A stretch of 64,000 bases of DNA from an uncultured virus (IMG/VR IMGVR_UViG_3300032164_000005) (IMGVR_UViG_3300032164_000005); one strand, 5' to 3'. Counted from the first letter of the stretch, positions 21,899-64,000 are shown. Notes: a model not told the origin generated them from the letters alone. A program made the numbers and translations.

Positions 21899-22549
21899 AT
21901 GAAGAAGCGATACGGCTACGCGCTGATGGAAGATCCTGGCTCCGAGGGCGTCGCCAGCGACAACGCAGAATACTCCTCGTCGTTGGCGACGGCAGAGAAT
22001 CGCGCGTCCCTCCTGGCGATGCGGCATCGCCATCCCGTTCTCGTGTGGGACACCGAGATGAACGTGGTCGTCGCGCACGTCGGAGCCAGCGGGACGGTGA
22101 AGTTCACCGCTGCGCACCCTCGACGACGCAACCCGTCGGAACCGATCACGGCGACCAAGACGCGCAGCGGCGGCATGAAGGTCTGCCGCACCGTCTCGCG
22201 CCGTGAGTCGGACAGGATGACGAAATTCTTCATGCGCGCCGTGCGCAGCAAGCCGGGGACCGTCGTGCGCGGCAACCCGACCTCGAAGAGGAACATCGCG
22301 CTGCCGCCCGAGGTGGTGACGGCGCTGTTCGAGTGGCACGGCGGGCAGTCCACGCCGACCTACTCGCTCGCGAGCACCGGCCAGGGCCACACGGTCAGCC
22401 TCGACATGATCAAGGCGGCCGAAGAAGAACTCGAGCGCGTGTACAAGAGGCTCAAGCCGAGGACCAAGGAGCGCACGCACCTGCGTCGCCTGCTCGGCGA
22501 ACTCGACACGATTCAGCGATACCCCGAGGAGTACAAGTACGATGAGTAG
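21899..22549 (+). CDS. RRNP-motif multidomain protein
   Basis: RRRNPS and RGNPT split it into three segments. Confidence 0.7.
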   Translation: MKKRYGYALMEDPGSEGVASDNAEYSSSLATAENRASLLAMRHRHPVLVWDTEMNVVVAHVGASGTVKFTAAHPRRRNPSEPITATKTRSGGMKVCRTVSRRESDRMTKFFMRAVRSKPGTVVRGNPTSKRNIALPPEVVTALFEWHGGQSTPTYSLASTGQGHTVSLDMIKAAEEELERVYKRLKPRTKERTHLRRLLGELDTIQRYPEEYKYDE

Positions 22550-23105
22550 CAAGACGCCTTGGGGCTGGATTCTGGCGGGTGCTGCCGCGATCTTCGTCGT
22601 TGCGAGAAATATCTCAGCAGCGCCGATGCCGCAGGCCGCACGCGCGCCGAGGCCCGGCCCGACAGGCGCGACCGGTGTGCCGACGTCCGGTCCGACGGGT
22701 ACGACCGGCGTGACGGGTACGTGGCTCGTTGGTGTGACGGGCACGACAGGCGCGGTCGGCCTGACCGGTGCCGGTGGAGGGGTCGTCGTGCAGTCGCGCC
22801 CGGTCCCGATCGATCCATCCACCGTCACGCCCTTCGAGGCTGCGAAGATCCTGGCAACCGTGCAAGGACAGCTTCGCGCGCTCGGCTACAACATCGATCG
22901 GATCGACGGCATCCAGAGCGATGCGACAACGGCTGCGGCGCAGCAGTTCTACGCGGACCATCGCGCTGCGGTAGACGCTGAAGCCGCACGGGTCCACAGC
23001 CACGACGACTGGGTCGTGTTGGTGATCCTCGACGACATCTACCGGGCGGCCTTCAACCTTCCGTCGGCCGTTGCGCCGACGCCGCTAGGAGCGACAGGAG
23101 CATGA
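22542..23105 (+). CDS. N-anchored protein with GAT repeats and a peptidoglycan-binding-like domain
   Basis: VQGQLRALGY...IDGIQSDATTAAAQQF. Confidence 0.7.
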   Translation: MSSKTPWGWILAGAAAIFVVARNISAAPMPQAARAPRPGPTGATGVPTSGPTGTTGVTGTWLVGVTGTTGAVGLTGAGGGVVVQSRPVPIDPSTVTPFEAAKILATVQGQLRALGYNIDRIDGIQSDATTAAAQQFYADHRAAVDAEAARVHSHDDWVVLVILDDIYRAAFNLPSAVAPTPLGATGA

Positions 23106-24247
23106 CCACGCAGCACAACTTCGGCCCGGTCGGAATCATCGGTTCGACCGTCGCGGACAGACCTGATCCGAGACTGCTTCCACTCGGCGAGTATTTCGTC
23201 TCGGAGTTGGATGGCCGGACGTTCTTCGTGACCAGGAACGGGATCGGCGTTCACGTCTGGAAGGAAGTCCTGGGCGCGGGCGGCGGAGGCGGAAGCCCGG
23301 TCGGGTTCGTGGTCGGTCCTGCGGGATCCGGCGCGCAGTTCACGACGTTCGCGTCGGCCATCGCAGCCGCGCTGCTCGCTGGTATCAGCACGGTGATGTT
23401 CCTGTCGGGTCGGTACGCCGCCGAACCAGTGATCAACCTCCCCGCTGGTATCTCGTTGCAGCCGTTTGGCGCAGAAGAGTTCACCGCGATCATCATCGCC
23501 GACATCGTCACGAACGCCCCGTTCAGCCTCACGCGAAGCGTCCAGGCTCTGCGCGGGTTCGTGCTCCAGGGTACGATCACCTGTGGCCCTCTCGCTGGGC
23601 CCGCGACGAACGCGATCGTCACGCTGACCGACATGCAGATTTCTTCGCCTGCGGGCCACGGAATCCGCACGCTCAACGACGGCTGGACGTTTGTGCTGAA
23701 GGAGGCGGATATCAACGTCCCCGCCGGAAGCAGGGACATCGACGCGAACGGATCGGTGAGCATCGACGCTTCTCGGAGCAACTTCGGATCGGTGGATCGT
23801 CCTCCTGTCGAACTCGGGAACGGCGGGTCGGCGAGGTTCGAGAACTGCTTCTTCCGTGGACCCGCGAATCGCATCAGCAACGTCGCTGCGAGCCTGAACT
23901 TCACCAACACGATTTTCGAGCTTCTGGGAAGCCCTTCGTACGTGATCGATGGCTTCGCGGGCAGCACGGTATCGATCAACGGCACGTTCGTTCAGCAGGG
24001 CCTTGCGGCGGCTGGAATGATCCTCGATCCGCTGCTGGGCACGCTTCAGATCGGGATGGGCGTCGATCTCGGAGAGCTTAAATTCTCCAGCCGACCGGTG
24101 CCGCCGTCCGCGAACATCATGCAGGGTGTCACGGCCTACTTCTTCGGCATGCTCCCCGGCGGTCCGAGTACCACCGCGACAGAAGCGCCTGTCTACTTCG
24201 CGGCGGGATTCTGGCGGCGCACCTCCGACGACTCGGTCGCGGCGTAG
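23102..24247 (+). CDS. putative spike/receptor-binding beta-helix protein
   Basis: AQFTTFASAIAAA...GRY..INLPAGISL resembles a pectin-lyase-like cap; beta-rich. Confidence 0.55.
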   Translation: MTTQHNFGPVGIIGSTVADRPDPRLLPLGEYFVSELDGRTFFVTRNGIGVHVWKEVLGAGGGGGSPVGFVVGPAGSGAQFTTFASAIAAALLAGISTVMFLSGRYAAEPVINLPAGISLQPFGAEEFTAIIIADIVTNAPFSLTRSVQALRGFVLQGTITCGPLAGPATNAIVTLTDMQISSPAGHGIRTLNDGWTFVLKEADINVPAGSRDIDANGSVSIDASRSNFGSVDRPPVELGNGGSARFENCFFRGPANRISNVAASLNFTNTIFELLGSPSYVIDGFAGSTVSINGTFVQQGLAAAGMILDPLLGTLQIGMGVDLGELKFSSRPVPPSANIMQGVTAYFFGMLPGGPSTTATEAPVYFAAGFWRRTSDDSVAA

Positions 24248-24249
24248 CC

Positions 24250-24570
24250 ATGAAGAAGCACATTCCGTCTGCGAGCAGCGCCCAGAACCTCCTGCCTCGG
24301 GGGATGGTTCTGATCCGCCGCCGAGACATCAAGAGAATATTCTCGTTGGCGAAGAAGCTCGGGTTCTTGACGGAACTGCGCGGGCTCGGCGTGCTGGTTC
24401 ACGAGGGCCTGATGGACGGCAGCAAGAACCTGATCCCGAAGGGGATGGTCCTGATCAGGAAGGCCGATCTGAAGCGGATCTACGGGCTGGCCGAGAGGCT
24501 GGGATTCCTGACGCGTCTGAAGGCGCTCGGGGTGATGGTTCACGAAGGCGTCTACCGGGAGTACAAGTAG
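24250..24570 (+). CDS. basic protein with two internal repeats
   Basis: NL(L/I)P(R/K)GMVLIR...LGFLT.L..LGV.VHEG occurs twice. Confidence 0.75.
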   Translation: MKKHIPSASSAQNLLPRGMVLIRRRDIKRIFSLAKKLGFLTELRGLGVLVHEGLMDGSKNLIPKGMVLIRKADLKRIYGLAERLGFLTRLKALGVMVHEGVYREYK

Positions 24571-24572
24571 CC

Positions 24573-24944
24573 ATGAAGAAGTACGGCACGACGGGCGACG
24601 TCAACGCGTTCGAGTACGGCGGCGGACTCGTGTTCGACAAGGGCAACGGCCCGGAGTGGTGGGTGTGGGACGAGCCCGACGAGGGCGGCGATCTCCTCGT
24701 GTACCGGGTGAGCGTCCCGGAAGACGTGCTCGAGTACTACAACTGGGCGGACGTGGACGCGGTGGCTCGTTCTACCGGCGAGAGCGTGATGGACATCAAG
24801 CGTCGCGGTTCGTCCAAGAACCCGCTGAACCGCGTTCGCGCCATGGAGAGCATTGCGGGGCACTACGGCATCATGGAGTTCGACTCGGAACCGCAGGAGT
24901 ACACCGAGGAGAGGCTTCGTGAGATCCTCGAGGAAGAAGAGTAG
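24573..24944 (+). CDS. phage hypothetical protein
   Basis: GDVNAFEYGG; acidic C-terminus. Confidence 0.7.
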   Translation: MKKYGTTGDVNAFEYGGGLVFDKGNGPEWWVWDEPDEGGDLLVYRVSVPEDVLEYYNWADVDAVARSTGESVMDIKRRGSSKNPLNRVRAMESIAGHYGIMEFDSEPQEYTEERLREILEEEE

Positions 24945-24946
24945 CC

Positions 24947-25504
24947 ATGTCGCTCAAGAAGATTCACGAGATCATCGTCTCGCCCCGCGTCCAGGTCCGC
25001 ACGTACAAGGACTCGGAGTGGGGAGAGTTCCAGACCAGAGTGTACCGGGATGGGAAGTTTCGCGAGTCGGAGACGAACCACGAGACAGATCGCGAGAGCG
25101 CGATCCTGACGGCGCAGGACATGGCGCGCAGACTCGAGACGCGACAGAACCCGTCGCGCACAAAAGCGCGAGCGATCGGTGAGGCACCGCGCTCGCGTAC
25201 CGAGGTGTCTCTCCAGAAGCGGGAAGCTCACCTCGCGAAGAGGGTCGAGGCTCTCGTGATCAGCCTGGGCGGCAAGAGGTTCTTGTCGCCCGGCTATCCG
25301 CTCGAGATCGAAACGAAGCACGGAATCCTCGCCATCGACCCGAATCTCGGGTGGATCGCCACGCGGTTCGAGGACGCCGCCAGGGGACAGCGCGCAGGTG
25401 CCGGTCAGACCGGGAAGTGGAACTTCTTCCCGCGCGGCGAGAGCATCAAGGCGTACGACGAGTTGTTCGAGACGTTCGCTGCGTCGTTGCGGAGGATCCT
25501 GTGA
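24947..25504 (+). CDS. two-domain protein joined at RQNPS
   Basis: ETRQNPSR linker. Confidence 0.7.
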   Translation: MSLKKIHEIIVSPRVQVRTYKDSEWGEFQTRVYRDGKFRESETNHETDRESAILTAQDMARRLETRQNPSRTKARAIGEAPRSRTEVSLQKREAHLAKRVEALVISLGGKRFLSPGYPLEIETKHGILAIDPNLGWIATRFEDAARGQRAGAGQTGKWNFFPRGESIKAYDELFETFAASLRRIL

Positions 25505-26292
25505 GAACGCGTCGTCGGAACCCGAGCGAGAGCAAGTACGTCCCGAGCGAGGGCAAGTACATCGTCGTGAACGCGACACGAGGCCGCGTGCTGGACAGCT
25601 ACGGCACGCTCGATGCGGCGCTCGAGGCCGTGAGCGATGCTCGTGACGGGTACGGCAACTCTGCACACACCTATCACGTCCTCGGTCCGTCATCGAACAA
25701 AACGGTGGCGGTCATCGACGGGGACAGCGGCGACGTACGGATGAACCCGTCCGGCCGTCGCCGTTCGACCCGGTCTCGCAGGAATCCCAACTACGCCGAC
25801 GTGCTCCAGACGAGGCGCGAGTTGAAGGAGAAGCTGCATGGCACGCCGCTGATGTACTCCGTCGCCCTGGAGCGATGGCTCGGCGACGACGAGGACAAGG
25901 AAGACCTCGTGATCAGCGCCGTGAACCAGATGCTGCGCGAGGGCTGGCAGAAATCTTCGCTCGACCGTTCGCACAGCCTCGTCATCGCGCGCCATGGCAC
26001 CGCGAAGCCGTACTACTCCGTGCTGCTGCAGTCGTCGCGCCGCAACCCGTCGAAGCGCGCATCGCTTCGCACGCGTGAGGGCACTCGAGTACGGTTCGTT
26101 CCGTCGTCCGCGAGCTTGGCGCTGTACGGCCAGCATCCGCAGGTCGGCGAGGATGGCACCGTGAGACCTGTGTCGTTGGGCAGCAGGCGGGCGACCAGCC
26201 TGCGCGGCCCTGGCGGCGGCCTGCTCTACGTGGACTGGGACCGCAGCGCGTTCCAGGGCGTGTCTCCGCTCGACCTTGTGGTGGTCCGATGA
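25501..26292 (+). CDS. RRNP polyprotein-like protein (4 motifs)
   Basis: RRRNPS, RMNPS, RRNPN, RRNPS; GTGA coupling. Confidence 0.75.
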   Translation: MRTRRRNPSESKYVPSEGKYIVVNATRGRVLDSYGTLDAALEAVSDARDGYGNSAHTYHVLGPSSNKTVAVIDGDSGDVRMNPSGRRRSTRSRRNPNYADVLQTRRELKEKLHGTPLMYSVALERWLGDDEDKEDLVISAVNQMLREGWQKSSLDRSHSLVIARHGTAKPYYSVLLQSSRRNPSKRASLRTREGTRVRFVPSSASLALYGQHPQVGEDGTVRPVSLGSRRATSLRGPGGGLLYVDWDRSAFQGVSPLDLVVVR

Positions 26293-27065
26293 GAGCGTTC
26301 AAGCAGGGCGATTCGATGCGGGTGACGGCTGACGAGCGCGACATCGATGCGTTCACAGACCGATTGCCCGCCTCTGGTCTCAGAGGGCTTCGATCCGTGT
26401 CGGCGATCTTCGAGCACAACGGGGATCTCGTGGACCTGTACACGAACGGACGCTACGGTGCCGGTCGCTTCGACGGCGGGGCTCTCGACGCGCTGCTCGA
26501 GGACATGCAGGAGTACGGGAAGCGCCGGATCTCCGGCACCGCTCGTCAGAATCCTGGTCTCGTCGTCGCAGACGAGATCCTGCGCCAACTCGGCGGATCC
26601 AACCGTCTCAAGGCGATGGTCGGCGCGCACTCGTTCCGTGGCGACAGAAACTCGCTCACGTTCAACCTCAAGGCGAGGGCGAAGCGCGGCATCAGGATCA
26701 TCAAGATCGTGCTCGATCCCAGCGACACGTACAACGTGGAGTTCTGGTCGGTCGCGCCCGTGAAGAAGGTCGCCGAGTACGAAGACGTCTACGCCGAGGG
26801 CCTGCTTCAACTGATCGAGCGCGAGACCGGGCTGGCGCTGCGGTTGAATCCTGTCGGCCGCAAGACGGTGCGGTTCACGAAGGTGGCCCCGAACTCCTGG
26901 GTCGTGAAGACGCCGATGGGCTCGATGTACCATGTGACGCACTACACGTCGCCGGTCATGGCGCGCGCGTGGGGCGGCGAGTGGGTGGCCGAGGGCTCTG
27001 TCGCACACACCAAGATCGTAGCCAACTCGATGGCGGAGCTACGCGCTCTGCTGGAGCGTCACTAG
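26289..27065 (+). CDS. three-domain protein joined at RQNP and RLNP
   Basis: Middle module ILRQLGG...DTYNVEF...TGL resembles a stand-alone phage protein. Confidence 0.75.
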   Translation: MRAFKQGDSMRVTADERDIDAFTDRLPASGLRGLRSVSAIFEHNGDLVDLYTNGRYGAGRFDGGALDALLEDMQEYGKRRISGTARQNPGLVVADEILRQLGGSNRLKAMVGAHSFRGDRNSLTFNLKARAKRGIRIIKIVLDPSDTYNVEFWSVAPVKKVAEYEDVYAEGLLQLIERETGLALRLNPVGRKTVRFTKVAPNSWVVKTPMGSMYHVTHYTSPVMARAWGGEWVAEGSVAHTKIVANSMAELRALLERH

Positions 27066-27829: not shown

Positions 27830-28195
27830 TCAGGCAGCAGGCTTCTGTGGCGTCTCGACGAGCCTGACGACTGCCTTCCGGTCGCCCCGGAGCAGCGCAG
27901 CCGTCAGCCGGTGGTGCCCGTCGGCGATGAGCATCCGCCCGTCGGACATGCGGTAGACCAGAGGTGGGTCTGGAGAGCTTGTCACGTACCGGTTCACGCC
28001 GACGGATGTCACCCTCCGCTGCGTCCCCCAGAGACCCTCCAGGGGCACGGTCGTCCGTTTGGCTCGGTCGATCAGTCGGGACGGGATGGCGGGCTTCTTG
28101 GCGTACGGGAACGGCGAGGCGAGCCAGATGACGACGGACCCGTCGTCCCAGAGTTCGCGCTCGAGCACTGGCAGGCCGAAGACGGTCCTCGTCAC
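27830..28195 (-). CDS. ParB/Srx N-terminal-like domain protein
   Basis: PPLV...LIADGHHRLTAA; GTGA coupling. Confidence 0.6.
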   Translation of the reverse strand: MTRTVFGLPVLERELWDDGSVVIWLASPFPYAKKPAIPSRLIDRAKRTTVPLEGLWGTQRRVTSVGVNRYVTSSPDPPLVYRMSDGRMLIADGHHRLTAALLRGDRKAVVRLVETPQKPAA

Positions 28196-29040
28196 GCGAA
28201 CAGGTCCGTGTCGATGAACGAGGCCTGCACGAGCGACCAGAAGTCGTTCGCGAGTCCCGAGGTGACGTAGCGGTACGGCATCCATCCATACCCGCCGTCG
28301 CCCCAGCCCGTGCCCCACGAGTTGCGCACGATGAATGCGCCCGTGTCGGTGCCGATCTTGTGCGCGTCGTTGTAGCCGACGATGACCATGGCGTGGCCGC
28401 CCTCGACGCTGTCGGTCTTGGCGGGGAACGGGATGTCGCCTCGGGGGTCATCGGGCGCTCCGATGCCTGGGAACGACGAGTAGACCGTCGTGCCGAACAT
28501 CGCCGGAAGCTGTCCAACGAGCGACGTCTTGAGCGCCTCCATAGTCTTCGCGGGGGAGCTACCTGCCGGGTCGTGACGGTAGTACTTCGTCGCTCGGTAG
28601 TTGCTCGCGAGGCTGTACAGGAACGCCGAAGGCTCTTCGTCGAACTTGGACTCGACGTACGGGTAGAGCTTCTCGGGCGGCGTGCCGAACATCGCGATGG
28701 CCTGCATCGCGGTGCGAAGCTCTGCGCCCGTGTCGCCACGGTCGCCCGCGAGATTCCGCGTGGCCTTGTAGATGAACAGGCGCGATGCGTCGAGGTGCTT
28801 GTTGAACGCGCGGCGCTCGAAGTACTCGAGCAGGCCGATGGCCGCGTTCGCGGTACACGAACCGATCTGTCCTTGGTCCTCGATCGGAGAACACCATGGC
28901 CGCAGATCGACCGAGGCGGGGAACGTGGCGGCAGCGATCCGGTTGGATTGCCCGAGCAGCGGCTTGATCTCCGGGTGCTCGGGGTGGAAGTCGCGGATGT
29001 CGGGGAGGTCGCGGATCCAACCCATCGCTCGGCGTGTCAT
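28192..29040 (-). CDS. papain-family (C1A) cysteine protease
   Basis: DQGQIGSCTANA, GGHAMVIVGY, IVRNSWG. Confidence 0.93.
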   Translation of the reverse strand: MTRRAMGWIRDLPDIRDFHPEHPEIKPLLGQSNRIAAATFPASVDLRPWCSPIEDQGQIGSCTANAAIGLLEYFERRAFNKHLDASRLFIYKATRNLAGDRGDTGAELRTAMQAIAMFGTPPEKLYPYVESKFDEEPSAFLYSLASNYRATKYYRHDPAGSSPAKTMEALKTSLVGQLPAMFGTTVYSSFPGIGAPDDPRGDIPFPAKTDSVEGGHAMVIVGYNDAHKIGTDTGAFIVRNSWGTGWGDGGYGWMPYRYVTSGLANDFWSLVQASFIDTDLFA

Positions 29041-29052: not shown

Positions 29053-29277
29053 CTACTCGTCCGCCTCGGCGAGAAGCGCGTTGCACAGCGTGCGCAACTC
29101 CTGGAGACGGTCGCGCGTGAGGTAGACGGTCACGATGGTTCCGTTGGGCGTCTGCACGGCGTACACGGACCCGGCGACGACGGCGATGCGGCTGCCGTCG
29201 CGCACCATCGTGAAGCTGTCTTCGCGACGACGCTCGACGGCCGCCTGGGCGGCGTGCAGCGCCTCGGTCAGGTCCAT
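29053..29277 (-). CDS. hypothetical protein
   Basis: ORF in the minus-strand array. Confidence 0.5.
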   Translation of the reverse strand: MDLTEALHAAQAAVERRREDSFTMVRDGSRIAVVAGSVYAVQTPNGTIVTVYLTRDRLQELRTLCNALLAEADE

Positions 29278-29437
29278 GCCGCCCGGCGTCGCTTCCGTGG
29301 GTTGCGACGGCGTCCTCGTGTCGTTCCGGCCCGGCGCGTCGGGGTGGGCTCGTCCGGCAAGAGATCAGCACCACCGAGTCCGCTCAGGACGAGATACCCG
29401 AGGCCGATGACGACGACACCGATGACGAGAGGCTTCA

Positions 29438-29950
29438 TCACATGTCTCGGAGCGCGCGGTTGATGTCCTTCGCGCCGTACCGGATTTCGAGGTAGATCAC
29501 GAAGACGTCGTTGCCGCGCTCATCGACCGCGTAGTGACGAGTCATTGCTCTGAAGGAGTCTGCTGGCACCAAGGCGCGCAGTTGCTCGAGCACCTTCTTC
29601 GCCTTGCGCTCGGCGGCGTTCCAGCCGCGTCCAGAGACCTCGATGGTTCCCTGGTTGGTCAGGTCGTTGATGAAGATGCGGCTTGGCTTCGCTGCTCGCG
29701 AGACGGACGGGTTCCTGATCGACCCGCTCATCACGGCGGTGTACACGCCCTGGTTCGCGTGGTGCCGCTTCAGGGCGTACTTCACCGCAGCGGTGATCGC
29801 TCCCTTGGGCCACTTCATCTTCGTGGTCTGCTTGCGGATCTCTTCGGCAATTTCCTCGTCGGGAGTGCCGACGTGGTGCCTGCCTACGGCGCGGTCGATC
29901 GCGTGCTTCGGGAGGATCTTGTCGTAGTTCACGCGCTTCTTGGTCGTCAT
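29438..29950 (-). CDS. two-domain protein joined at IRNPS
   Basis: GAGG RBS; SIRNPSV. Confidence 0.65.
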   Translation of the reverse strand: MTTKKRVNYDKILPKHAIDRAVGRHHVGTPDEEIAEEIRKQTTKMKWPKGAITAAVKYALKRHHANQGVYTAVMSGSIRNPSVSRAAKPSRIFINDLTNQGTIEVSGRGWNAAERKAKKVLEQLRALVPADSFRAMTRHYAVDERGNDVFVIYLEIRYGAKDINRALRDM

Positions 29951-29984: not shown

Positions 29985-30440
29985 CTAGCGGCGCGGATTG
30001 CGCCGTCTTCGCCCTGAGGGATTCGATCGCGCCTTCGGCTTGCCGAGACCCTGCGCCAGGGCGACGGCGGGCACGATGATCGGGAACATGAACCCGAGGA
30101 AGCCCCACCACAGGCCCCAGCCGAGGGAGTTGTTGCGCCGGTAGCCGTGGTACACGCCGATGCCCGACGAGGCGTACGCGACGGTCTGCATCAGGGGCGA
30201 GCGCCCCATGTACCCGGTCTCCGGTGTCGGGCTGACCGGGATGAGTTGCGTTACGTGCCCACCTGGGACTCGAATCAGGATGTTCTGCCCGTCCGTTGTC
30301 ACCGTGAGGTCGCCGGGCGTCGCGCCGACGTCCTGGATGATGCCCCGGCTGACGACAAGGTTCGCGATGCTACTTGGGGACGAGTAGGGCGGGATGTCGA
30401 TCCGGGATGAGGGGCTGCCATCGACGTAGTACGTGGTCAT
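29985..30440 (-). CDS. membrane protein with RSNPSGRRRRNPRR tail
   Basis: YHGYRRN..WGLWWG TM; leaderless -10 TATCAT. Confidence 0.7.
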   Translation of the reverse strand: MTTYYVDGSPSSRIDIPPYSSPSSIANLVVSRGIIQDVGATPGDLTVTTDGQNILIRVPGGHVTQLIPVSPTPETGYMGRSPLMQTVAYASSGIGVYHGYRRNNSLGWGLWWGFLGFMFPIIVPAVALAQGLGKPKARSNPSGRRRRNPRR

Positions 30441-31557: not shown

Positions 31558-31881
31558 TCACATCGTGGTGACCTCCGGCCGGGCAATGCACTCGCAGGGG
31601 TACTGCACGCAGTCGAGGCACACCTGCGTCACGACGCCGCGTAGCATCCGGGCGTACTTCGCGTCGGCGATCTCTTGGACGAAGGTCTTCCGCTTGACCT
31701 TGTAACTCTCGACGGCGTTCCTCTTCGCGGCCTCGACGTGCTCGTCGCAGCAGGGCGTGCCGCGCCAATTGGCATTCGGCGAGACCGTGTGGGTTGCGAG
31801 TTCCTGGCAGAACGCACAGCCGGGCACGTACTGCTGAAGCAGACGCAGCATGGCGGTGACTTCTTCGATGGTCAGGTTCAC
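31558..31881 (-). CDS. Cys-rich hypothetical protein
   Basis: CAFC...CCDEH...CLDC. Confidence 0.55.
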   Translation of the reverse strand: MNLTIEEVTAMLRLLQQYVPGCAFCQELATHTVSPNANWRGTPCCDEHVEAAKRNAVESYKVKRKTFVQEIADAKYARMLRGVVTQVCLDCVQYPCECIARPEVTTM

Positions 31882-32438
31882 GACAGCGCCCCCTTTCCAA
31901 CCTGCTCGAGAGTCTCGCGCAGCGCCTCGCGGTTCGCGGTGCCCTCCAGCCGGGCGATGGCTGCCCGCGTGTCGGCGAGATTGCGGATCTGGTGGGTCTC
32001 GCTCTCGCGCAACCGGGCGAGTTCCTGGTCGCGCTTCTCAGCCTCGGTGTAGATCGTCCGGGGCACGATCATGCCCTTGGTGACCATCTGCGCGACCTTG
32101 GCGTCGAACTGCTCGATGAGGCTAGCGAGCGCCACGCGCTTCGCGAGGAAGAACACGGTCGGCAGCGGGTTGCCCCTGCTGTCCCCTACGCCTTCGACAT
32201 CGTCGAGAACGACGGTCGTCTTGCCAGCGGAGGCGAACTCCGCGAGGAGCTTGTCACCGAGGGCGATGCCCTCCGGAGTCAGGGGCAGATTAATGTGCCG
32301 GTGCGAGGTGTGACCACGGGCCTCGCTGTATCGGCCGCGCATCGCCTTGATCTGCTTGCCGTAGCGACGGACAAGCTCCGGTGACGTGTTCAGGTCGAGG
32401 CGGACTGACGTTGCTCGGATCGTTGCCGTCGTGCTCAT
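31878..32438 (-). CDS. hypothetical protein (cassette-driven)
   Basis: Directly downstream of conserved cassette copy 1. Confidence 0.7.
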   Translation of the reverse strand: MSTTATIRATSVRLDLNTSPELVRRYGKQIKAMRGRYSEARGHTSHRHINLPLTPEGIALGDKLLAEFASAGKTTVVLDDVEGVGDSRGNPLPTVFFLAKRVALASLIEQFDAKVAQMVTKGMIVPRTIYTEAEKRDQELARLRESETHQIRNLADTRAAIARLEGTANREALRETLEQVGKGALS

Positions 32439-47495: not shown

Positions 47496-47497
47496 CC

Positions 47498-47830: not shown

Positions 47831-47833
47831 CGC

Positions 47834-48765: not shown

Positions 48766-48767
48766 CG

Positions 48768-52169: not shown

Positions 52170-52202
52170 CAGGAGGTCGTCTCCTCGAGAGGGTGAACTG
52201 CC

Positions 52203-52838
52203 ATGACGTCTCCGAACCCTCCGTTCATCAGCAGTTCACCCCAACTCATTCTTCTGCCGTCGGGCGGCCCGGAAGGACTCGAGTCCGCCCGCGTCGTCCC
52301 GCCGCCGCAGAACATCCACCTCGCTGACCCTGGCGCTGCCTCGCTCACGAACGCCGCGTCGTTCCAGGCTGTGCAAGCGGTCACGATCGACTGCGTTGAC
52401 ACGTACGTCGGGGATGGCGGCCAGATTCAGCGGTTCCCAACACGCGTGAACAACGCGATGTCCCGCTTCTGGCTGTGGCTCGACCAGATTTCTCCGGGAT
52501 TCGGTCAAGCGGGAGCAGTCCCGGTCTTGCGACCGAAGTTCCCGGCGCAGTTCGAGATCCAGATCAGGGCTGCGACCGGCAGGGTTTCCGAGACGGTGTT
52601 CCAGGGCCTCGTCAAGCCAACGTCATTCGATGACAACGGCCTGCTTGTGGGTCTGGACGGGTATCTATGCTCGCAGTGGGAAGTGTGGGGCAGGGTTCCG
52701 AATCTGGGCGGAACAGAGTACCCGCTGATGGTCAAGTTCAACATCTTCGTGGACAGGATGGCGCAGCGGTGCTCGGGTGTTCAGCCGCCCACGCTTGGCA
52801 GACTCGTTTCCGCGACGCCCATCCAGTACTACCCGTAG
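52203..52838 (+). CDS. beta-rich structural protein (minor capsid/vertex candidate)
   Basis: Follows the MCP candidate; alternating hydrophobic strands. Confidence 0.4.
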   Translation: MTSPNPPFISSSPQLILLPSGGPEGLESARVVPPPQNIHLADPGAASLTNAASFQAVQAVTIDCVDTYVGDGGQIQRFPTRVNNAMSRFWLWLDQISPGFGQAGAVPVLRPKFPAQFEIQIRAATGRVSETVFQGLVKPTSFDDNGLLVGLDGYLCSQWEVWGRVPNLGGTEYPLMVKFNIFVDRMAQRCSGVQPPTLGRLVSATPIQYYP

Positions 52839-52848
52839 GAGAGGTCTC

Positions 52849-53370
52849 ATGGCTCGATACAATCCGTTCTTCCTCGGCAAGAAGACTGCCGTCGGAACCA
52901 GTCTCAGTGGTCGCCTCGTGCGGTCGAAGAGCAAGAAGCGCCGCCTCTCGGGCGCGGCCCTGCTCGCGTGGCGCAAGAAGCACGTCAAGGGTCGTCGTCG
53001 GGTCAAGAGCCTGCTCGGTGGCAGCAAGAAGTCGCGTCGGCTGAACCCGTGGTTCCTCGGCAAGAAGACCGCCGTCGGATCGAAGATCACCGGCCGCGTG
53101 ATCAAGTCGAAGCACAAGGGCAAGCGCCTCTCGAAGGCCGCGCTGCTCTCGTGGCGCTCGGAGCATGTGAAGGGTCGTCGCCGCGTTTCGAGCCTGCTGA
53201 AGGGCAGCAAGAAGTCGCGTCGGCTGAACCCGACCCACGGCAACAAGGGCCTGTCAGCGCGGATCGCGCTGCTCGAGCGCAAGATCGCCGCGATCACCAA
53301 GGCGCACAAGAAGATGATCAAGAGCCTCTCGGCGAAGATGTCGCATCGCCGTCTGAACAGCGGCTACTAG
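52849..53370 (+). CDS. highly basic repeat protein, candidate DNA-condensing core protein
   Basis: Two ~63-aa K/R-rich repeats bounded by RYNP/RRLNP. Confidence 0.75.
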   Translation: MARYNPFFLGKKTAVGTSLSGRLVRSKSKKRRLSGAALLAWRKKHVKGRRRVKSLLGGSKKSRRLNPWFLGKKTAVGSKITGRVIKSKHKGKRLSKAALLSWRSEHVKGRRRVSSLLKGSKKSRRLNPTHGNKGLSARIALLERKIAAITKAHKKMIKSLSAKMSHRRLNSGY

Positions 53371-53393
53371 CCGAGGCTCCGCGTCGAAGATAA

Positions 53394-53430
53394 GGGCACC
53401 CGTCGCAAGGCGGGTGCCCCTTCTGGTTTC
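53394..53430 (+). terminator. hairpin terminator after the structural operon
   Basis: GGGCACCCGTC-GCAA-GGCGGGTGCCC followed by a pyrimidine-rich tail. Confidence 0.7.
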
Positions 53431-53492
53431 TCCTTCCACATCGCACGCCGCGCCCCGCGCGCCGGACGCTGAACGGTGGTAGATTCGTCGGC

Positions 53493-53747
53493 ATGACTGA
53501 CCCCGTCTCGGCCTTGCTCGCGCTGCTGCCTCCGACGGTCCGCGTCGTCGTGAGTTCGATCCTCTCGCTGATCGTGCTCGCGTCCGTGATCATCGGCGCG
53601 CTTCCGACGTCTTCGTCGAAGAACCCGATCGTGAAGGCCTTGCGGTTCATCGGCGGCCTCGTGCATCACGACGAGGACGGCACGATCAAGCTGCCGTTCT
53701 CGAACTACGTGATCCGCGTTGGCGTGACCCCGCAGGAGAAGAAGTGA
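53493..53747 (+). CDS. putative holin
   Basis: Small TM protein with a charged tail, first gene of the lysis cluster. Confidence 0.5.
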   Translation: MTDPVSALLALLPPTVRVVVSSILSLIVLASVIIGALPTSSSKNPIVKALRFIGGLVHHDEDGTIKLPFSNYVIRVGVTPQEKK

Positions 53748-54187
53748 TGCGAAGACTGCTGTTCCTGGTGGTTCTCATGCTTCCCGTCTCCTCGTGTACG
53801 GACGCCCAGTGGCGGCAGTTCGTCGAGATCAACACGAAGGTCGCCAACTACGTGAACGACGCGATCCTCGCTCTGAGCCTCGTAAGCGGCCTCGTGGAGA
53901 GCGCGGTGCCGCCGGGCGACCGAGGTACGGTGTCGGACGTCTGGGACGCGATCAGGGCCTGCAACGAGGCTCTCCAGGCGGAGGCGGACGTGGTTCAGCA
54001 CTCGAGCGCGCCGCTCGACACGCCCGCGCACATCGCCGCAGCGTTTCCGAGCTTCCTGGCCGCATGGAACCACCTGACCAACGCGTTGCACGGTCACAAC
54101 CTGCTGCCGTCGTCCGGGCATCCGATGGCGACCCCTCACACGATCCGCACGCCGCGCCTCGTGCGCGACGCAACGGTGCAGCACTGA
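53744..54187 (+). CDS. lipoprotein
   Basis: MRRLLFLVVLMLPVSSC lipobox-like signal. Confidence 0.6.
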   Translation: MMRRLLFLVVLMLPVSSCTDAQWRQFVEINTKVANYVNDAILALSLVSGLVESAVPPGDRGTVSDVWDAIRACNEALQAEADVVQHSSAPLDTPAHIAAAFPSFLAAWNHLTNALHGHNLLPSSGHPMATPHTIRTPRLVRDATVQH

Positions 54188-54235
54188 GATTACGGCGTGC
54201 GTTTCTTACGTCGCATCGCATAGGCCAAGTATAAC

Positions 54236-55168
54236 ATGAATTCCCAACCAGGATCTGTCCAAGACATCCCGTGTCCGATGCGTAACGGCCTGAGTCTTTG
54301 GATCTGGCCGGGCGGACGCGGTGAAGGATGGAAGAGCGCGCACCAACAGGCCGACAGGGCCCTGGCGCTCGGTGCGACCGGCGTGATCGCGCAGTCCGGT
54401 CTGAGCGCCCCCGTGTGGCTTGCAGGGCGCGACAAGGGCGATGCGGTGCCCAGGTTCGAGGTCTTCCAGCAGGCGGGCCTGCAGGTGACCGCAGGCCTCG
54501 GGATGGACGGATCGGAAGCGACCGTCGCGACGATCACGCGCGCTGTCGTCGATGCCGTGGATCTGCCGAACGTGCTGGTCATGGCCGACGAAGAGAAGAT
54601 GTGGTGGGAAACGCCCACGGGACGCGCAGCCGCGAAGTCGATCGTGGCCGCCGTGATCAAGGCGAGGCCTCTCGCGCCGACGCGCGGCATGTGTTGCCCG
54701 TGGTGGAAGCCGGAAGTTCACTCCGGCGCACCGGACCATGAGTTCTTTCCGCTGTTCCACCACTTCTTCTGCCAGGACTACGGCGCGAGGGGCAAGGACG
54801 CCCCGCTGGACAACACGCTCTCCATGCTCGCGCACTCGCGAGAGTCGTACGCGAAGCGCGGCATCTCCCCGGACCACATCCATCTCGCGTTCCAACTCTA
54901 CGCGCACAGCCTCGCGAACGCGGGGCGCATCGTTCTGTGCGGCGAGCCTGTCATGGCTGGGTGGGACGTCGAAGAGATGGACGAGCACATGCATCTCGCG
55001 CTGCTGGCTCGCGCTCGTCTGATCGCGCTCGGCTATCTGCCGTCACGCGGCGGCCTCGTGTCGTTCCAGGCGGGGGCGGGAATCACTGCGGACGGCATCC
55101 TTGGTCCGGTCACGCTGCGCGCTCTCGCCATCTCCATGTCGGGAATACTGGATCCAGGGCTGAAGTAG
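54236..55168 (+). CDS. putative glycoside-hydrolase-like lysin with C-terminal PG-binding domain
   Basis: (beta/alpha) pattern with DEE and QDY; FQAGAGITADGILGPVTLRAL. Confidence 0.6.
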   Translation: MNSQPGSVQDIPCPMRNGLSLWIWPGGRGEGWKSAHQQADRALALGATGVIAQSGLSAPVWLAGRDKGDAVPRFEVFQQAGLQVTAGLGMDGSEATVATITRAVVDAVDLPNVLVMADEEKMWWETPTGRAAAKSIVAAVIKARPLAPTRGMCCPWWKPEVHSGAPDHEFFPLFHHFFCQDYGARGKDAPLDNTLSMLAHSRESYAKRGISPDHIHLAFQLYAHSLANAGRIVLCGEPVMAGWDVEEMDEHMHLALLARARLIALGYLPSRGGLVSFQAGAGITADGILGPVTLRALAISMSGILDPGLK

Positions 55169-56299: not shown

Positions 56300-56451
56300 T
56301 GTGTCGCAACGGCTGTACGAAGCCTGTGGTGGAGGATGACCTGTGCGAAGACTGTCTCGTCGGCGAGCTTGTGGAGTTCGCGGTGAAGTACCGTCGCGAG
56401 GAGGATCCCGATCCGCCGGTACTGGTCCTGTTCGATCACGGAGGTGAGTGA
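56299..56451 (+). CDS. small Cys-rich protein
   Basis: CRNGC...CEDC; coupled. Confidence 0.45.
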   Translation: MCRNGCTKPVVEDDLCEDCLVGELVEFAVKYRREEDPDPPVLVLFDHGGE

Positions 56452-57197
56452 TGCTGGTTCTCGCTGGGAAGCAGATCGAAACGCCGTTCGCGTCCAAGTC
56501 ATGGCTCGACGACCCGGCGTACAGGATCGCGAACGACAAGGCTTCGCGGTCGGCGAACACATGGATTCGCGGCATCACGCTGCACACCACGCACGGAAAG
56601 TACCCGCAGCCGATCATCCCTGGTATGGGCATGCCGGGTTCCGCGCTCGCGAACATCCTGTACTGGAACAGGTCGCCTGCGTACGCCTCGGCCCATCTGC
56701 TGCTCGACCAGGACGGCACCGTGTGCCAGTGCGCCGACCTCGTGACCGAGACGACGTGGCATGCGACGTCGGTCAACCCCATCACGGTTGGCGTCGAGAT
56801 TTGCCAAGCGGCCGACGGGTCGTTGTACCAGGGTCAGATCGACGTGGCGGTGAGCTTGTGCGACTGGTTGACGGTGCAGCTTGGCATCCAGCGGCAAGTT
56901 CCGCAGGCCTACGCCAACAAGCCCATCCAGCGGCTTGTGGATGGAGCGCGAGACTTCGTCGGCATCTTCGGTCACCGGGACCAGACGAGCGATCGTGGTC
57001 GCGGTGATCCTGGCGACTTCGTCATGGATGCTCTCGTGAAGGCTGGGTACGAGAGATTCGATCTCGATCGGCTGGAAGACAGGACCGCGTGGCGCGAGCG
57101 ACAGGCTCGTCTCGGGATCGTCGCCGACGGTCTCCCTGGGAAGGCCACCGTGGCCGCGCTGAAGTCCAACCCGGACGGGCTGTGGGTGAGACGGTGA
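56448..57197 (+). CDS. N-acetylmuramoyl-L-alanine amidase (Amidase_2) endolysin with PG-binding tail
   Basis: ITLHTT, SAHLL, TWHA, VGVEI, FGHRD, DPG. Confidence 0.88.
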   Translation: MMLVLAGKQIETPFASKSWLDDPAYRIANDKASRSANTWIRGITLHTTHGKYPQPIIPGMGMPGSALANILYWNRSPAYASAHLLLDQDGTVCQCADLVTETTWHATSVNPITVGVEICQAADGSLYQGQIDVAVSLCDWLTVQLGIQRQVPQAYANKPIQRLVDGARDFVGIFGHRDQTSDRGRGDPGDFVMDALVKAGYERFDLDRLEDRTAWRERQARLGIVADGLPGKATVAALKSNPDGLWVRR

Positions 57198-57911: not shown

Positions 57912-58157
57912 ATGGCACGTCGTCGTCGTCGTCGTCTCAATCCGACAACGCCCGAAGGGGCAGTTCTCGGCACGGCTGCCATCGGCGGTCTCCTCGCGAG
58001 CCTGTACTACGCGGTCACGGCCGTCGGGACGTCGATGAATCCGTCGGAGTCGCGTCGCCGTGCCATGCTTTCGGGCGGCATACTCCTCGGCACGATGACC
58101 GTGTTCGCTCTGACCGGCGAGGCTTCCGCGCGGCGACGCGAAGGGCGCGCGACTTGA
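57912..58157 (+). CDS. small two-TM protein with N-terminal RRRRRRLNP
   Basis: Motif plus two hydrophobic helices. Confidence 0.7.
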   Translation: MARRRRRRLNPTTPEGAVLGTAAIGGLLASLYYAVTAVGTSMNPSESRRRAMLSGGILLGTMTVFALTGEASARRREGRAT

Positions 58158-58808: not shown

Positions 58809-59081
58809 TCACCGTCGCGGGCGTCGCGGATCGACCGTCACCCCTTCGAGGATCATCGGCTGATACCTCGTACCGAACTTCAGTGACCGGATAACCTCGG
58901 CCGCATCGACCCTGCTGGTCGTGAAGATGGACGCGACCTTCTTCTTGCCGCTGTGCGCGATCACCGCGTATCCATCGAGGCCCTTGTACGAAGCGGGGTG
59001 GACGCGGAATACCATCGCGGGTCGTTGTTTGCTCATGGTCGTGATCCTAACAGGGAGACGCCCTGGTTCATCACGTACCGG
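58768..59081. repeat. 26-bp direct repeat pair
   Basis: AGACGCCCTGGTTCATCACGTACCGG at 58768-58793 and 59056-59081. Confidence 0.85.
58809..59036 (-). CDS. hypothetical protein (leaderless)
   Basis: TGTTAGGAT-7-ATG. Confidence 0.55.
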   Translation of the reverse strand: MSKQRPAMVFRVHPASYKGLDGYAVIAHSGKKKVASIFTTSRVDAAEVIRSLKFGTRYQPMILEGVTVDPRRPRR

Positions 59082-59223
59082 TCGTAGCCGGATGCGTGGG
59101 GGTGGGGTACGAGAAGAAGATGATGTAGACGGCCAGCGCGCCAAGCAGGATCGCTCCTGGCGTCACCTTCTTGCCGGTCAGAATCTGAGAAATGGCGTCT
59201 GGATTGGTTCGTCGCCTGCTCAT
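59071..59223 (-). CDS. 50-aa TM peptide with RRRTNP (absent from the ORF track)
   Basis: MSRRRTNPDAISQILTGKKVTPGAILLGALAVYIIFFSYPTPTHPATTGT; leaderless TGTTAGGAT-7-ATG. Confidence 0.65.
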   Translation of the reverse strand: MSRRRTNPDAISQILTGKKVTPGAILLGALAVYIIFFSYPTPTHPATTGT

Positions 59224-60246: not shown

Positions 60247-60363
60247 ATGCGCAGGAAGCGAAGACGGAACCCGGACACCGGACCCGCAGGATGGCTTCTC
60301 GCCGCGACCGTGCTGATCGTGATCGTGGGCTTCGCCGTCGCTCCTAGCGCCCCGCCTCGCTGA
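60247..60363 (+). CDS. 38-aa TM peptide with RKRRRNP
   Basis: MRRKRRRNPDTGP plus TM; leaderless TGGTACAAC-6-ATG. Confidence 0.6.
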   Translation: MRRKRRRNPDTGPAGWLLAATVLIVIVGFAVAPSAPPR

Positions 60364-60543: not shown

Positions 60544-61464
60544 TCACGCCGCTACCTCCTCGGCGACCTTCTCGGACGCCTCGCCCCCGACGTTCAGCGC
60601 GTCGAGGATCGTGTTCGCGGCCTTCACGATCCGCTCGCCCACGCGGGCGATGATCTTCGTGGCCGGGTCGCCGCCGTTCTGCGCCCAGGTCGCGACGTAG
60701 GGGAACGAGTAGCACCCGGTGTCCAGGCCGAGGGCGTGCGAGACGATGAACGCCACGCTCTCTGCCTCGACCTCGCACACGGGGCGCTCGTGGCGCTCGT
60801 CGGACCCGTGGAGCAGAGAGTGCGCGACCTCGTGGACGAGGGTCTTGAACTGCTCCGCGCGGTTGCGACCGCCGGTCACGATCACGATCTCGCGTGACAG
60901 GCGGGAGTACCAGCCCTTCGCGCCGCCGCCGAATTCCGTGTCGGTCTCCTGGAAGCGGATCGCCGAGACGGGCGCACCCTCGAGTCCCAGGGCGACGTCG
61001 CGCAGGCGCTCGATGGACTGCTCGAACACCTCGGGCGCGTCGATGCGCGGCAACTCTTTGGACTCAGGGAGGGGCTCGCCGTCGGTCTGGCTGACGTCGA
61101 ACACGGACACGACGCGGAACCGCACGCCCTTGAGCGTCTCGGTGGTCTCGATGCCCTGCGCGTCCGTACGCTTCACGTCGCGCTTGAACGGCACGGGGGC
61201 GAGGATCGCGTGGCTCTTGGCACCGCGCACGACGTGGCGGTTCACGGACAACCACGTCTTGAACCCTGCGACGGCGCGCATGTCCGCGCCCTGGCTGATC
61301 AGGAGTAGCTGGTTCGCGAACGAGTAGCGGCGCGGCGAGAGCTTGCCCAGGGTCGCGCTGGCGGTCAGCACGGCCTTCCAGTCCTCGTCCGTGTTGAGCG
61401 CCGCGAGACCGCGCTGCAGGGCTTCCTGCGCGGCCTTGACCCTGTCTGTCGTCTCGTTCGTCAT
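60544..61464 (-). CDS. ArdC-like antirestriction protein (ssDNA-binding plus HExxH domain)
   Basis: YSFANQLLL, AGFKTW..VNRHV.RG, VFDVSQTDG, LVHEVAH, EVEAESVA. Confidence 0.85.
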   Translation of the reverse strand: MTNETTDRVKAAQEALQRGLAALNTDEDWKAVLTASATLGKLSPRRYSFANQLLLISQGADMRAVAGFKTWLSVNRHVVRGAKSHAILAPVPFKRDVKRTDAQGIETTETLKGVRFRVVSVFDVSQTDGEPLPESKELPRIDAPEVFEQSIERLRDVALGLEGAPVSAIRFQETDTEFGGGAKGWYSRLSREIVIVTGGRNRAEQFKTLVHEVAHSLLHGSDERHERPVCEVEAESVAFIVSHALGLDTGCYSFPYVATWAQNGGDPATKIIARVGERIVKAANTILDALNVGGEASEKVAEEVAA

Positions 61465-63270: not shown

Positions 63271-63282
63271 GCAAGTGAAGCT

Positions 63283-63313
63283 CCGGGTTGCAGGGTACGT
63301 TCCTGCAACCCGG
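63283..63313. other. 12-bp stem hairpin
   Basis: CCGGGTTGCAGG-N7-CCTGCAACCCGG. Confidence 0.6.
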
Positions 63314-63346
63314 CACGACCAGTTTGCAGGAGACACGGAGGTTCAC

Positions 63347-63577
63347 ATGGACACGGGGTACGAGATCCAGAAGCTCGATCGGCGCACCTGGGTGACCGTC
63401 GCTCGCGGCGACGACCTGGAACGTCTTACGACCAAGGCTCTGAAGATCGCGAAGCAGGATCGCACCGACGTTCGCGTTCGCGACTACGGCAAGGTGGTGG
63501 TGTTCACGGCGTACCGCGACGGGGCCTACAGCGGCCGTCGCGCGCCCGACGCCGACTTCGGCGACGGAGAGGGATGA
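63347..63577 (+). CDS. hypothetical protein
   Basis: GGAGG RBS. Confidence 0.6.
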   Translation: MDTGYEIQKLDRRTWVTVARGDDLERLTTKALKIAKQDRTDVRVRDYGKVVVFTAYRDGAYSGRRAPDADFGDGEG

Positions 63578-63689
63578 GACCGATGAATCACGCTGAACTG
63601 GCTACGAGCGCCCCGACGGCGTTACAGGCGCGTTCGAGTGCGTAGCCGAGGATGACGACGGAGTTCTCGGCGGTGCTGGCTGCGAGTGC

Positions 63690-64000
63690 ATGAAGTTCAA
63701 GAAGGCGCGCAACCCAACAACATCGAGCCCGAGTGATCCTCGCGCTTTCGGCGTTCAGGGAGTGGTGGTAGCCTCCACCATCATGCCCTACGCCACCCGA
63801 GTGAACCCGTTCGTCAGCCCAGCCGACCGCAAGAAGGTGCTGATGGCGCTGTTCAAGAAGTTCAAGTCCATGGGCGACGGCAAGGTGATCAGCGGTGGCA
63901 AGCACAACGTGATGCTTGCGACCGAGGGCTACCGCACCGTGACGCTCGAGACGCTGCCGGACGACGAGATCCTGCGTCTCGCGCGCAAGCACGGCATCCT
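63690..64000 (+). CDS. partial protein with ARNP and RVNP motifs (start 63690 or 63783)
   Basis: Open to the window edge; -10-like TAGCCT before the ATG at 63783. Confidence 0.5.
   Translation, partial: MKFKKARNPTTSSPSDPRAFGVQGVVVASTIMPYATRVNPFVSPADRKKVLMALFKKFKSMGDGKVISGGKHNVMLATEGYRTVTLETLPDDEILRLARKHGI

Follow-up and report, generated by a model that had tools for sequence, protein, structure and literature searches.

An Arg-x-Asn-Pro seam at module boundaries in accessory proteins of an uncultured virus, a possible separator of polyprotein-like reading frames

The motif and the proteins that carry it

A 64,000-nucleotide stretch of DNA from an uncultured virus (IMG/VR IMGVR_UViG_3300032164_000005), referred to below as the window, encodes from 21.9 kb onwards a series of unrelated proteins in which a short peptide, Arg-x-Asn-Pro (R-x-N-P), recurs. 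Positions are counted from the first letter of the window, and open reading frames (ORFs) are named by their first coordinate (Table 1). A first-pass annotation made from the sequence alone had pointed to this motif in about 19 unrelated proteins and had proposed a tag-and-cleave system for virion cargo. Every instance that it listed was present in the sequence, those given under 29950, 30440, 38019 and 59223 lying in minus-strand genes, and two further sites were found, one each in ORFs 29268 and 31878.

The G+C content is 61-68% across 2-kb windows of the stretch, and since spurious ORFs are common at such values our own gene call was made, using a codon-usage model trained on the window combined with dynamic programming, which gave 119 genes. 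The 80 genes called from 21.9 kb on (13,019 amino acids, aa) were compared with the 39 upstream genes (6,682 aa), and for these two sets we keep the names "late" and "early". The former is the label of the earlier reader and is unverified because no capsid, portal or terminase gene was recognised. The motif was scored as R.{0,2}NP, and the expected numbers were obtained from 500 runs of within-protein shuffling with composition kept. The late set contained 28 sites in 19 of the 80 proteins compared with 4.61±2.12 in the shuffled proteins (maximum 13, none of the 500 runs reaching 28). The same was seen for RNP (14 observed, 1.63 shuffled), for NP regardless of context (49 observed, 22.96±4.35 shuffled, 0/500) and for R.{0,1}NPS (10 observed, 0.19 shuffled, 0/500). 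For the early set a single site was found, a PRNP in the nuclease, against 1.89 in the shuffles (433/500 runs reached one), and NP was at its expected number (9 and 8.75, respectively), which agrees with the near-absence from replication and early genes described before. When all 400 dipeptides were counted within two residues after an arginine, NP was the sole outlier (28 against 3.24, z = 13.5), the next being RR (z = 4.0). Five of the 28 sites are located in the first 12 residues, four within 20 residues of the C-terminus and 19 internally, and in the 58 NP contexts of the window the residue after NP is mostly serine or threonine.

Conservation at the protein level, as the first-pass annotation had claimed, was evident from codon usage. 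The arginine at -2 is encoded by CGN in 23 of the 28 sites, with an essentially random third base (A 7, C 7, G 8, T 6), asparagine by AAC in 17 and AAT in 11, and all four proline codons are used (third base A 3, C 4, G 19, T 2). The octamer AACCCGTC occurs eight times on the two strands, and seven of the eight are in frame 0 of the coding strand of a late gene. The motif is thus confined to the coding frame of genes on either strand, and the random third base of Arg(-2) together with the use of both asparagine and all four proline codons shows that selection acts on the protein.

Table 1. Motif-bearing reading frames and other features of the window (N followed by a number, asparagine residue of the site; nt, nucleotides)
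Position	Strand	Feature	Details
21899-22549	+	three-module ORF, 216 aa	seams RRRNPS (N78, nt 22130-22135) and VRGNPT (N126, nt 22274-22279)
24947-25504	+	two-module ORF, 185 aa	seam TRQNPS (N68, nt 25148-25153)
25501-26292	+	ORF, 263 aa	seams N7, N82, N95, N182
26289-27065	+	three-module ORF, 258 aa	seams ARQNPG (nt 26550-26555) and LRLNPV (nt 26847-26852); ATG 26289 used, gene caller began at 26397
29268-29438	-	ORF, 56 aa	contains RRRNPR, ends in RRRNPRKRRRAAWT; weak gene call, score 5.0
29438-29950	-	two-module ORF, 170 aa	seam SIRNPS (N80, nt 29708-29713)
29985-30440	-	ORF, 151 aa	C-terminal ARSNPSGRRRRNPRR, then stop
31878-32438	-	ORF, 186 aa	SRGNPL at N90
37129-38019	-	ORF, 296 aa	ARRNPS at N233
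38023-38637	+	ORF, 204 aa	GYRNPA at N62
38649-39128	+	ORF, 159 aa	ARRNPS at N81
39376-39903	+	two-module ORF, 175 aa	seam PFRNPS (N63, nt 39562-39567)
41431-43128	+	protein, 565 aa	ARRNPF at N143; no PHROG or Pfam match
46611-47495	+	protein, 294 aa	C-terminal tail KRRRNPVIGSNRSRRYVS, then stop
50107-51123	+	protein, 338 aa	QRGNPW at N76; also loose RRHYENP (R at -4)
52849-53370	+	protein, 173 aa	two 61-aa repeats and a tail
57912-58157	+	ORF, 81 aa	starts MARRRRRRLNP; weak gene call, score 5.0
59071-59223	-	ORF, 50 aa	starts MSRRRTNP
60247-60363	+	ORF, 38 codons	starts MRRKRRRNP; uncalled by the gene caller
63690-63998	+	ORF running off the window	KARNPT (N8), TRVNPF (N39)
28192-29025	-	papain-family (C1) cysteine peptidase, 277 aa	Pfam PF00112, E 6.3e-17, 62.8 bits (cut-off 20.7)
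43141-43629	+	transglutaminase-like core protein, 162 aa	Pfam E 3.7e-5, barely over the cut-off
56451-57197		amidase endolysin	PHROGs/Pfam
60544-61464	-	ArdC-N anti-restriction-domain protein, 306 aa	Pfam E 2.4e-7; phrog_7245
5289-5717	-	Tad6 homologue (Type I Thoeris inhibitor), 142 aa	Pfam E 8.8e-46, nearly full profile
14366-14845	+	YpsA/SLOG-like (DprA-related) protein, 159 aa	within the replication block

The densest clusters of sites (21.9-27.1, 29.3-32.4 and 37.1-39.9 kb) adjoin replication genes and lie on both strands. The arrangement within one protein is best seen in ORF 25501, where a leader MRTRRR-NP is followed by module a (residues 9-81), NP, a basic 11-mer, NP, module b (97-181), NP and module c (184-263). 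The repeat units of ORF 52849 each begin at a site (MARYNP-FFLGKK, RRLNP-WFLGKK and RRLNP-THGNKG), and in ORF 46611 the motif comes after a domain (residues 172-274) that is paralogous to the next gene, 47498-47830 on the plus strand, with 47% identity.

A recurring mini-element was also noted, in which NP precedes an Arg-rich stretch of 2-13 residues that is located at the extreme C-terminus or between two motif copies (e.g. NPSGRRRSTRSRRNP). Copies are present in the window at 25744-25788, 29994-30023 and 29268-29303, and in the homologous proteins P0169, P0172, P0212 and P0138. This Arg-rich mini-element may be a product in its own right.

Seams between exchangeable modules

Among the 19 motif proteins four had PHROG matches, each of them ending or starting within a few residues of a motif. 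In the ORF 39376 protein phrog_336 covers residues 2-61 and phrog_4496 residues 70-165, with N63-P64 in between; phrog_7884 covers residues 1-62 of ORF 24947, before N68; phrog_7402 covers residues 13-73 of ORF 25501, between N7 and N82; and phrog_9437 (profile positions 2-98 of 98) covers residues 56-150 of the gene call starting at 26397, between N52 and N151. Searches with whole proteins gave the same division, in that residues 9-81 and 77-190 of ORF 26289 matched different phage proteins (tblastn), and matches obtained with the ORF 25501 protein without profiles covered residues 7-91, 92-191 and 184/191-262 separately. The internal ends of BLAST high-scoring segment pairs were located at most 6 aa from a motif in 10 of 19 cases for the window proteins (2.06±1.33 at random, maximum 8, 2000 runs) and in 13 of 28 cases for the ORFs of relatives (1.92±1.27 at random, maximum 7); locus L014 was left out of these counts as a duplicate of L013.

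Structure prediction was consistent with this division. The AF2 model of the ORF 25501 protein has three folded parts (predicted template modelling score 0.44), and its stretches with a predicted local distance difference test score (pLDDT) below 50, residues 1-12, 85-94 and 164-182, correspond to where N7, N82, N95 and N182 lie. Shorter stretches of that kind at 151-153 and 155-159 are both free of the motif. The model of the ORF 39376 protein has a single low-confidence stretch, residues 57-67, which contains N63-P64. A fold search with the ORF 25501 model gave no match at E<=0.001, and weak SH3/KOW-like rows for module c.

The modules also occur on their own. The C-terminal module of ORF 39376 is a stand-alone protein of about 110 aa in most of the 120 homologues listed, and its N-terminal module matches 323 phage records, where it stands alone with 57-62 aa; in SD6, a T7-like Escherichia phage and the only record inspected, it is a 62-aa coding sequence near the genome start. 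These stand-alone versions in other phages lack the motif. Module c of ORF 25501 was found in 147 proteins of 59-1858 aa. The motif therefore coincides with the boundaries between small (about 45-115 aa), independently folding and independently occurring modules, and the Arg-x-Asn-Pro seam, as we call it from here on, lies in predicted disordered joints between modules strung together in frame. This anatomy, which extends far outside this genome, was absent from the first-pass annotation.

Eighty loci were obtained when metagenomes were scanned with an alignment of module c, and motif density was high only in the nearest ones, which is why the feature is taken to belong to the lineage. The densities per 1000 aa were 4.26 in L015, 2.53 in L014 and 2.14 in L013, with 9/10, 16/16 and 16/16 NP dipeptides, respectively, of the motif type. 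Locus L026 had 1.6, 68 of the 80 loci had 0-0.95, and the remaining ones were four short loci of 1.1-2.4 kb with one site each (1.44-2.54) and four loci at 1.03-1.23. Eight IMG/VR loci with module c had motif densities at background.

Comparison of the window with these nearest loci located the differences at the seams. The DNA of L015 is 91% identical to positions 21368-25156 and 25147-25964 of the window, and an extra 595 nt at the seam of ORF 24947, with breakpoints on AACCCG, encodes the N-module of ORF 29438, which is on the minus strand of the window, and a copy of module c. This N-module is found in L015 and L013 in the other strand context, fused behind the N-module of ORF 24947. In L013 module a of ORF 25501 is joined straight to module c, module b is located in another ORF between two other seams, and DNA homology to the region of ORF 26289 begins at 26285; homologues of ORF 21899 are present in both L013 and L015. 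Protein P0070 has the N-module of ORF 39376 (93%) up to FRNP, followed by unrelated modules and another seam, SRLNP. Among longer fused forms of this N-module only P0070 and the ORF 39376 protein itself were found. Proteins P0123 and P0124 have two modules in common and diverge after SN/P. As judged from these alignments, relatives add, drop and reorder modules exactly at the motif.

Several variants bear on the dipeptide itself. Module c opens its own gene in L015, starting at GTG-KRASL where the window has NP-S-KRASL, so that the serine after NP is replaced (likewise in P0125), and the ORF 29438-type module in L015 ends in a basic tail and a stop at the position of SIRNPS in the window. Contigs from two sediment runs (X5 and X6) match ORF 21899 through position 22129 and then have TGA, a stop replacing N78; this variant, known from contigs only, is modest evidence. 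Given that natural variants have a stop instead of the asparagine, or a start in place of the residue that follows NP, neither module needs the dipeptide, and N and P both lie outside the modules that flank it.

Small deletions were also seen in this region. Four contigs from three sediment runs have 2-nt deletions at 22275-22276, within the AACCCG of the second ORF 21899 seam, and one contig has a 15-nt deletion (25530) a few bases downstream of the first ORF 25501 seam. Assembly breaks are frequent around both positions.

To examine more distant proteins, a representative set of 150 homologues with mutual identities of no more than 50% was used, and the shared domain was masked before counting because its own F-x-P-N-P-A-S would inflate NP. 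In the 137 proteins (39,489 aa) of this masked count NP occurred 223 times against 72.6 expected (z = 20.5), the next dipeptide having z = 5.2. GNP and RNP were the most enriched tripeptides, and NPS, NPA, ENP and KNP were also among the top nine. A GGLG-type alternative separator was considered and rejected, as it was not among the tripeptides enriched outside the shared domain. Two or more basic-x-NP sites were present in 38 of the 137 homologues, with up to seven per protein at a spacing of 50-150 aa. Many of the 150 homologues are chains of 50-150-aa segments, each ending in ...R-x-x-N and followed by P. Proteins P0145, P0174, P0175, P0187, P0203 and P0244 have 4-7 seams each, and some homologues, P0175 and P0203 among them, are made up of as many as eight segments. 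In distant lineages N-P is retained in other contexts (R-K-G-N-P, M-R-E-N-P); it is the invariant core, and the basic residue changes position from one lineage to another. No Pfam family was found in the 19 array-type homologues, a genome-contig search with P0203 gave no matches, and four proteins are relatives of P0203 of nearly its length.

The long arrays P0145, P0174, P0175, P0187 and P0203 end in a common last module, which is Lys-rich and continues with ...P(I/L/M)A(K/R)..(L)(G/T)G(K/R)ACY..(K/E)CF....

Surrounding genes and candidate peptidases

The region at 1-19 kb encodes a replication and recombination set consisting of an exonuclease subunit, a Sak4-like annealase, a PD-(D/E)XK exonuclease, a helicase and a primase (PHROGs, Pfam). 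Identity of the primase to cultured phages does not exceed 27% in the 12 matches listed, and all 626 matching records are below 60%. Near relatives of the window were not found among 50,697 phage records (megablast of 41374-46583, tblastn of a 316-aa protein), and viral-contig searches with proteins 51219 and 41431 gave no matches. Window DNA was found in contigs from sequencing runs of sediment metagenomes, and no RNA datasets were among the listed runs containing it. Scans of the window for tRNA genes and Rfam families gave no matches.

No capsid, portal or terminase gene was recognised in the window with PHROGs and Pfam, and no scaffold or head (prohead) protease gene with PHROGs, Pfam and ESM Atlas; for proteins 41431 and 51219 ESM Atlas gave nothing usable, or leads at or below 0.90. 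The plus-strand block 41431-55168 has 18 called genes, 14 of which are on the plus strand with at least 110 aa. ORF 43141 alone has a Pfam match at the gathering cut-off, four other genes have sub-threshold Pfam rows only, and there were no PHROG matches among the 18. ORF 43141 directly follows the 565-aa protein of ORF 41431 and could be a second cysteine peptidase beside the papain-family enzyme of ORF 28192.

The papain-family peptidase shares its minus-strand block with five seam genes. It aligned with PDB entry 3ois (E = 5e-36), including GSCTAN, GGHA and RNSWG, which we take to be the motifs of the catalytic Cys, His and Asn. No signal peptide was seen in ORF 28192, and the enzyme is intact and, by this absence, predicted to be cytoplasmic.

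Four neighbouring plus-strand genes, 19436, 20315, 21266 and 22542 (19436-23105), have a similar N-terminal stretch in common, and 22542 and 36757 share a PG_binding-like C-terminal part. Genes 48768 and 49391 (48768-50110, plus strand) are tandem paralogues with 36% identity over their full length.

Possible roles of the seam

We propose that the R-x-N-P seam is a separator that splits polyprotein-like accessory ORFs into small proteins, a reading to which we give about an even chance. The chain would be split at the seams into small module proteins, during or after synthesis, by an endopeptidase of phage or host origin with Arg(-2)-x-Asn-Pro as its recognition sequence; splitting by the chemistry of the Asn-Pro bond itself would be a less likely alternative to such an enzyme. 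The same short and uniform seam could provide in-frame microhomology for cassette exchange by the phage recombination system. A separator is favoured because the signature is uniform at every joint, dispensable for its neighbours and kept at the peptide level; marking each of the joints would be necessary for a separator but superfluous for a tag. With respect to the earlier proposal of tag-and-cleave for virion cargo, a processing mark is the most economical reading, whereas its virion cargo and packaging part found no support.

The papain-like peptidase of ORF 28192 is the obvious but unsupported candidate for the cutter. An aspartate in its GLANDFW, placed in the S2 pocket by a putative numbering, might take arginine at P2 and so give a cut R-x↓N-P (the arrow marks the break). 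When residues 30-277 of the peptidase were modelled in complex with the linker of ORF 25501 (residues 163-204), the score was 0.01 (mark 0.34), which counts neither for nor against this enzyme.

Cutting at the seams is an inference throughout, and several observations weigh against the separator. Proline at P1' is disliked by most endopeptidases, which makes the scissile bond uncertain. Of the sites, five are located at 5-10 residues from the N-terminal end and four close to the C-terminal one; a cut there would free no more than very small peptides, an outcome equally compatible with a tag or with a remnant of recombination. The tandem seams 8-13 residues apart in ORFs 25501 and 29985 would be of no obvious use to a cutter. 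Proteins in which several domains are fused through flexible linkers can also function without being cut. Finally, a relative of the peptidase with 47% identity is encoded on a 111-kb viral contig, and the 17 kb flanking it show no motif enrichment, and no recognisable peptidase domain was found in the array-type homologues (0 Pfam families, 19 proteins).

The closest described concept is that of the polyvalent proteins, in which a single polypeptide of a mobile element combines many unrelated domains and domain shuffling is extensive, and for which release of the domains by proteolysis has been proposed (Iyer et al. 2017, PMC5512222, in the passages available). With 2-4 modules per ORF in the window and up to eight segments in homologues, the present proteins fall within the 2-15 unrelated domains described there. 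Polyvalent proteins are, according to the same passages, large and contain recognisable conflict domains (ArdC-N, MPTase, ParB-like), whereas no Pfam family was found in the motif proteins of the window or in the 19 array homologues; the ArdC-N protein of the window (ORF 60544) has no seam motif. Polyvalent proteins are also described there as carrying their own zincin-like (MPTase) peptidase domain. Unlike these, the present chains contain no peptidase, and the peptidases are separate genes (ORF 28192, and ORF 43141 as a candidate). The uniform Asn-Pro seam at the joints is a further difference, given that the passages of PMC5512222 name no seam motif and that the word "linker" occurs nowhere in that paper. 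What is seen here is a polyprotein or polyvalent type of architecture with a previously undescribed uniform seam. The first-pass annotation knew of no earlier description of such a system, and none of an Asn-Pro seam in phage proteins was found in a literature search that covered few subscription journals.

A rather unlikely alternative, and one that would leave the fused proteins whole, is that R-x-N-P serves for docking or as an address: placed in disordered termini and linkers and left uncut, it would bind one shared partner, for instance DNA, the inside of the capsid, a host factor or an enzyme that modifies proteins. The location of the motif in disordered segments at N-termini (5 sites), at C-termini (4 sites) and in linkers is compatible with docking, as are the very basic flanks, since several proteins end in NP and an Arg-rich 10-13-mer (29268, 29985, the inner 11-mer of 25501, P0169, P0172, P0212 and P0138), and tandem copies would raise avidity. 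One tag per protein should however be enough, and yet there is a seam at nearly every joint, up to seven per protein. Other phages encode these modules as separate proteins that lack the motif, and in the natural stop-for-N and start-after-NP variants the dipeptide proves dispensable for both neighbours; these observations also speak against docking.

Loading of small proteins into the virion and their later release, comparable to the T4 capsid-targeting sequences or the adenovirus protease sites, is in our view improbable. Maturation proteases have short site codes, L/I-x-E for T4 gp21 and A/S/G-x-E for phiKZ/SPN3US, as well as the adenovirus protease sites, and the seam resembles these in being a short degenerate peptide that recurs in many unrelated proteins of one virus. 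Such sites are read by one viral protease and trim virion proteins during head maturation, whereas the present sites lie between exchangeable accessory modules and their cutting is conjectural. Some motif proteins are encoded in the plus-strand block at 41.4-55.2 kb, just upstream of the endolysin gene, and the Arg-rich mini-peptides that follow NP are reminiscent of the core peptides of adenovirus. Against this, the densest seam clusters adjoin replication genes on both strands, the cluster of L013 abuts primase and helicase genes, the identifiable modules are small accessory families, with the SD6 homologue of one N-module near the genome start in the single record, and no capsid, portal, scaffold or head-protease gene was recognised, the transglutaminase-like core protein being the only hint in the direction of a prohead protease.

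Similarly improbable is a seam that is conserved only as DNA microhomology for in-frame cassette exchange, the peptide having no function. The breakpoints between the window and L015/L013 on AACCCG are what this would predict, and a Sak4-like annealase and an exonuclease are encoded in the window. The DNA identity is, however, often merely 5-6 bases while the peptide is kept, the codons vary at Arg(-2), Asn and Pro as described above, and distant lineages retain N-P with different flanks.

A break without any protease, either through attack of the asparagine side chain on its own carbonyl or because no Asn-Pro bond is formed on the ribosome and the upstream module is released (a bacterial StopGo), is in our judgement quite improbable in this window, and we consider it a long shot that viruses of bacteria and archaea widely use N-P seams as a code for splitting chains without a protease, by which one ORF would give many small proteins and modules would be swapped in frame. 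The chain would then break at R-x-N↓P through failure of ribosomal Asn-Pro coupling or through Asn cyclisation. Proline is the poorest acceptor, each downstream module would begin with proline as in 2A, and FlhB/YscU, with NPTH, represent the Asn-Pro type of autocleavage. The invariance of N-P across lineages while the flanks drift would fit such chemistry. Asn-Pro autocleavage is documented for RsgI, reovirus mu1 and aquareovirus VP5, which share with the seam the invariant Asn-Pro and a downstream product starting with Pro, although the cases in the available part of that source have one site per protein inside a folded domain, in a turn between strands, that strains the bond and favours cyclisation of the Asn (PMC10328401), whereas the many seams here lie in predicted disordered linkers (pLDDT<50) with a basic residue at -2 or -3. 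The 2A/StopGo peptides are likewise separators within an ORF that contain N-P and leave a downstream product beginning with Pro, but have an 18-22-aa consensus ending in NPG↓P (bioRxiv 10.64898/2026.09.24.754024, in part); NPGP occurs in 0 of the 58 NP contexts, and the consensus D(V/I)ExNPG↓P is absent from the window. The same portion of that source describes 2A as dependent on eukaryotic ribosomes, with no activity known in prokaryotes. RAPP-like arrest cores (RAGP in SecM, RAPP in ApdA/ApdP) have strict sequence needs, their third position tolerating only Gly besides Pro, as far as the available text of PMC12992588 goes, and "RANP" occurs zero times there, while the motif here is R-x-N-P.

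Chance or amino-acid composition, for which the Arg-richness of the late-set proteins (8.15% R) might have spoken, is excluded, as none of the 500 shuffles reached the count, NP was the sole outlier of 400 dipeptides and relatives share the feature.

Expression through polyproteins is regarded as uncommon among viruses of prokaryotes. Should the seams be cut, a large number of phage "genes" to which no function is assigned would really be polyproteins, and such genomes would be credited with wrong numbers of genes and proteins. The seam provides a simple rule for splitting ORFs into functional units for annotation and structure prediction, and would explain the in-frame exchange between relatives of accessory modules, a likely source of anti-defence functions. 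Given the enrichment in the 137 distant homologues, the signal extends well past this genome, and if splitting were protease-independent, the seam would be the first bacterial counterpart of the 2A-type separators and a useful tool.

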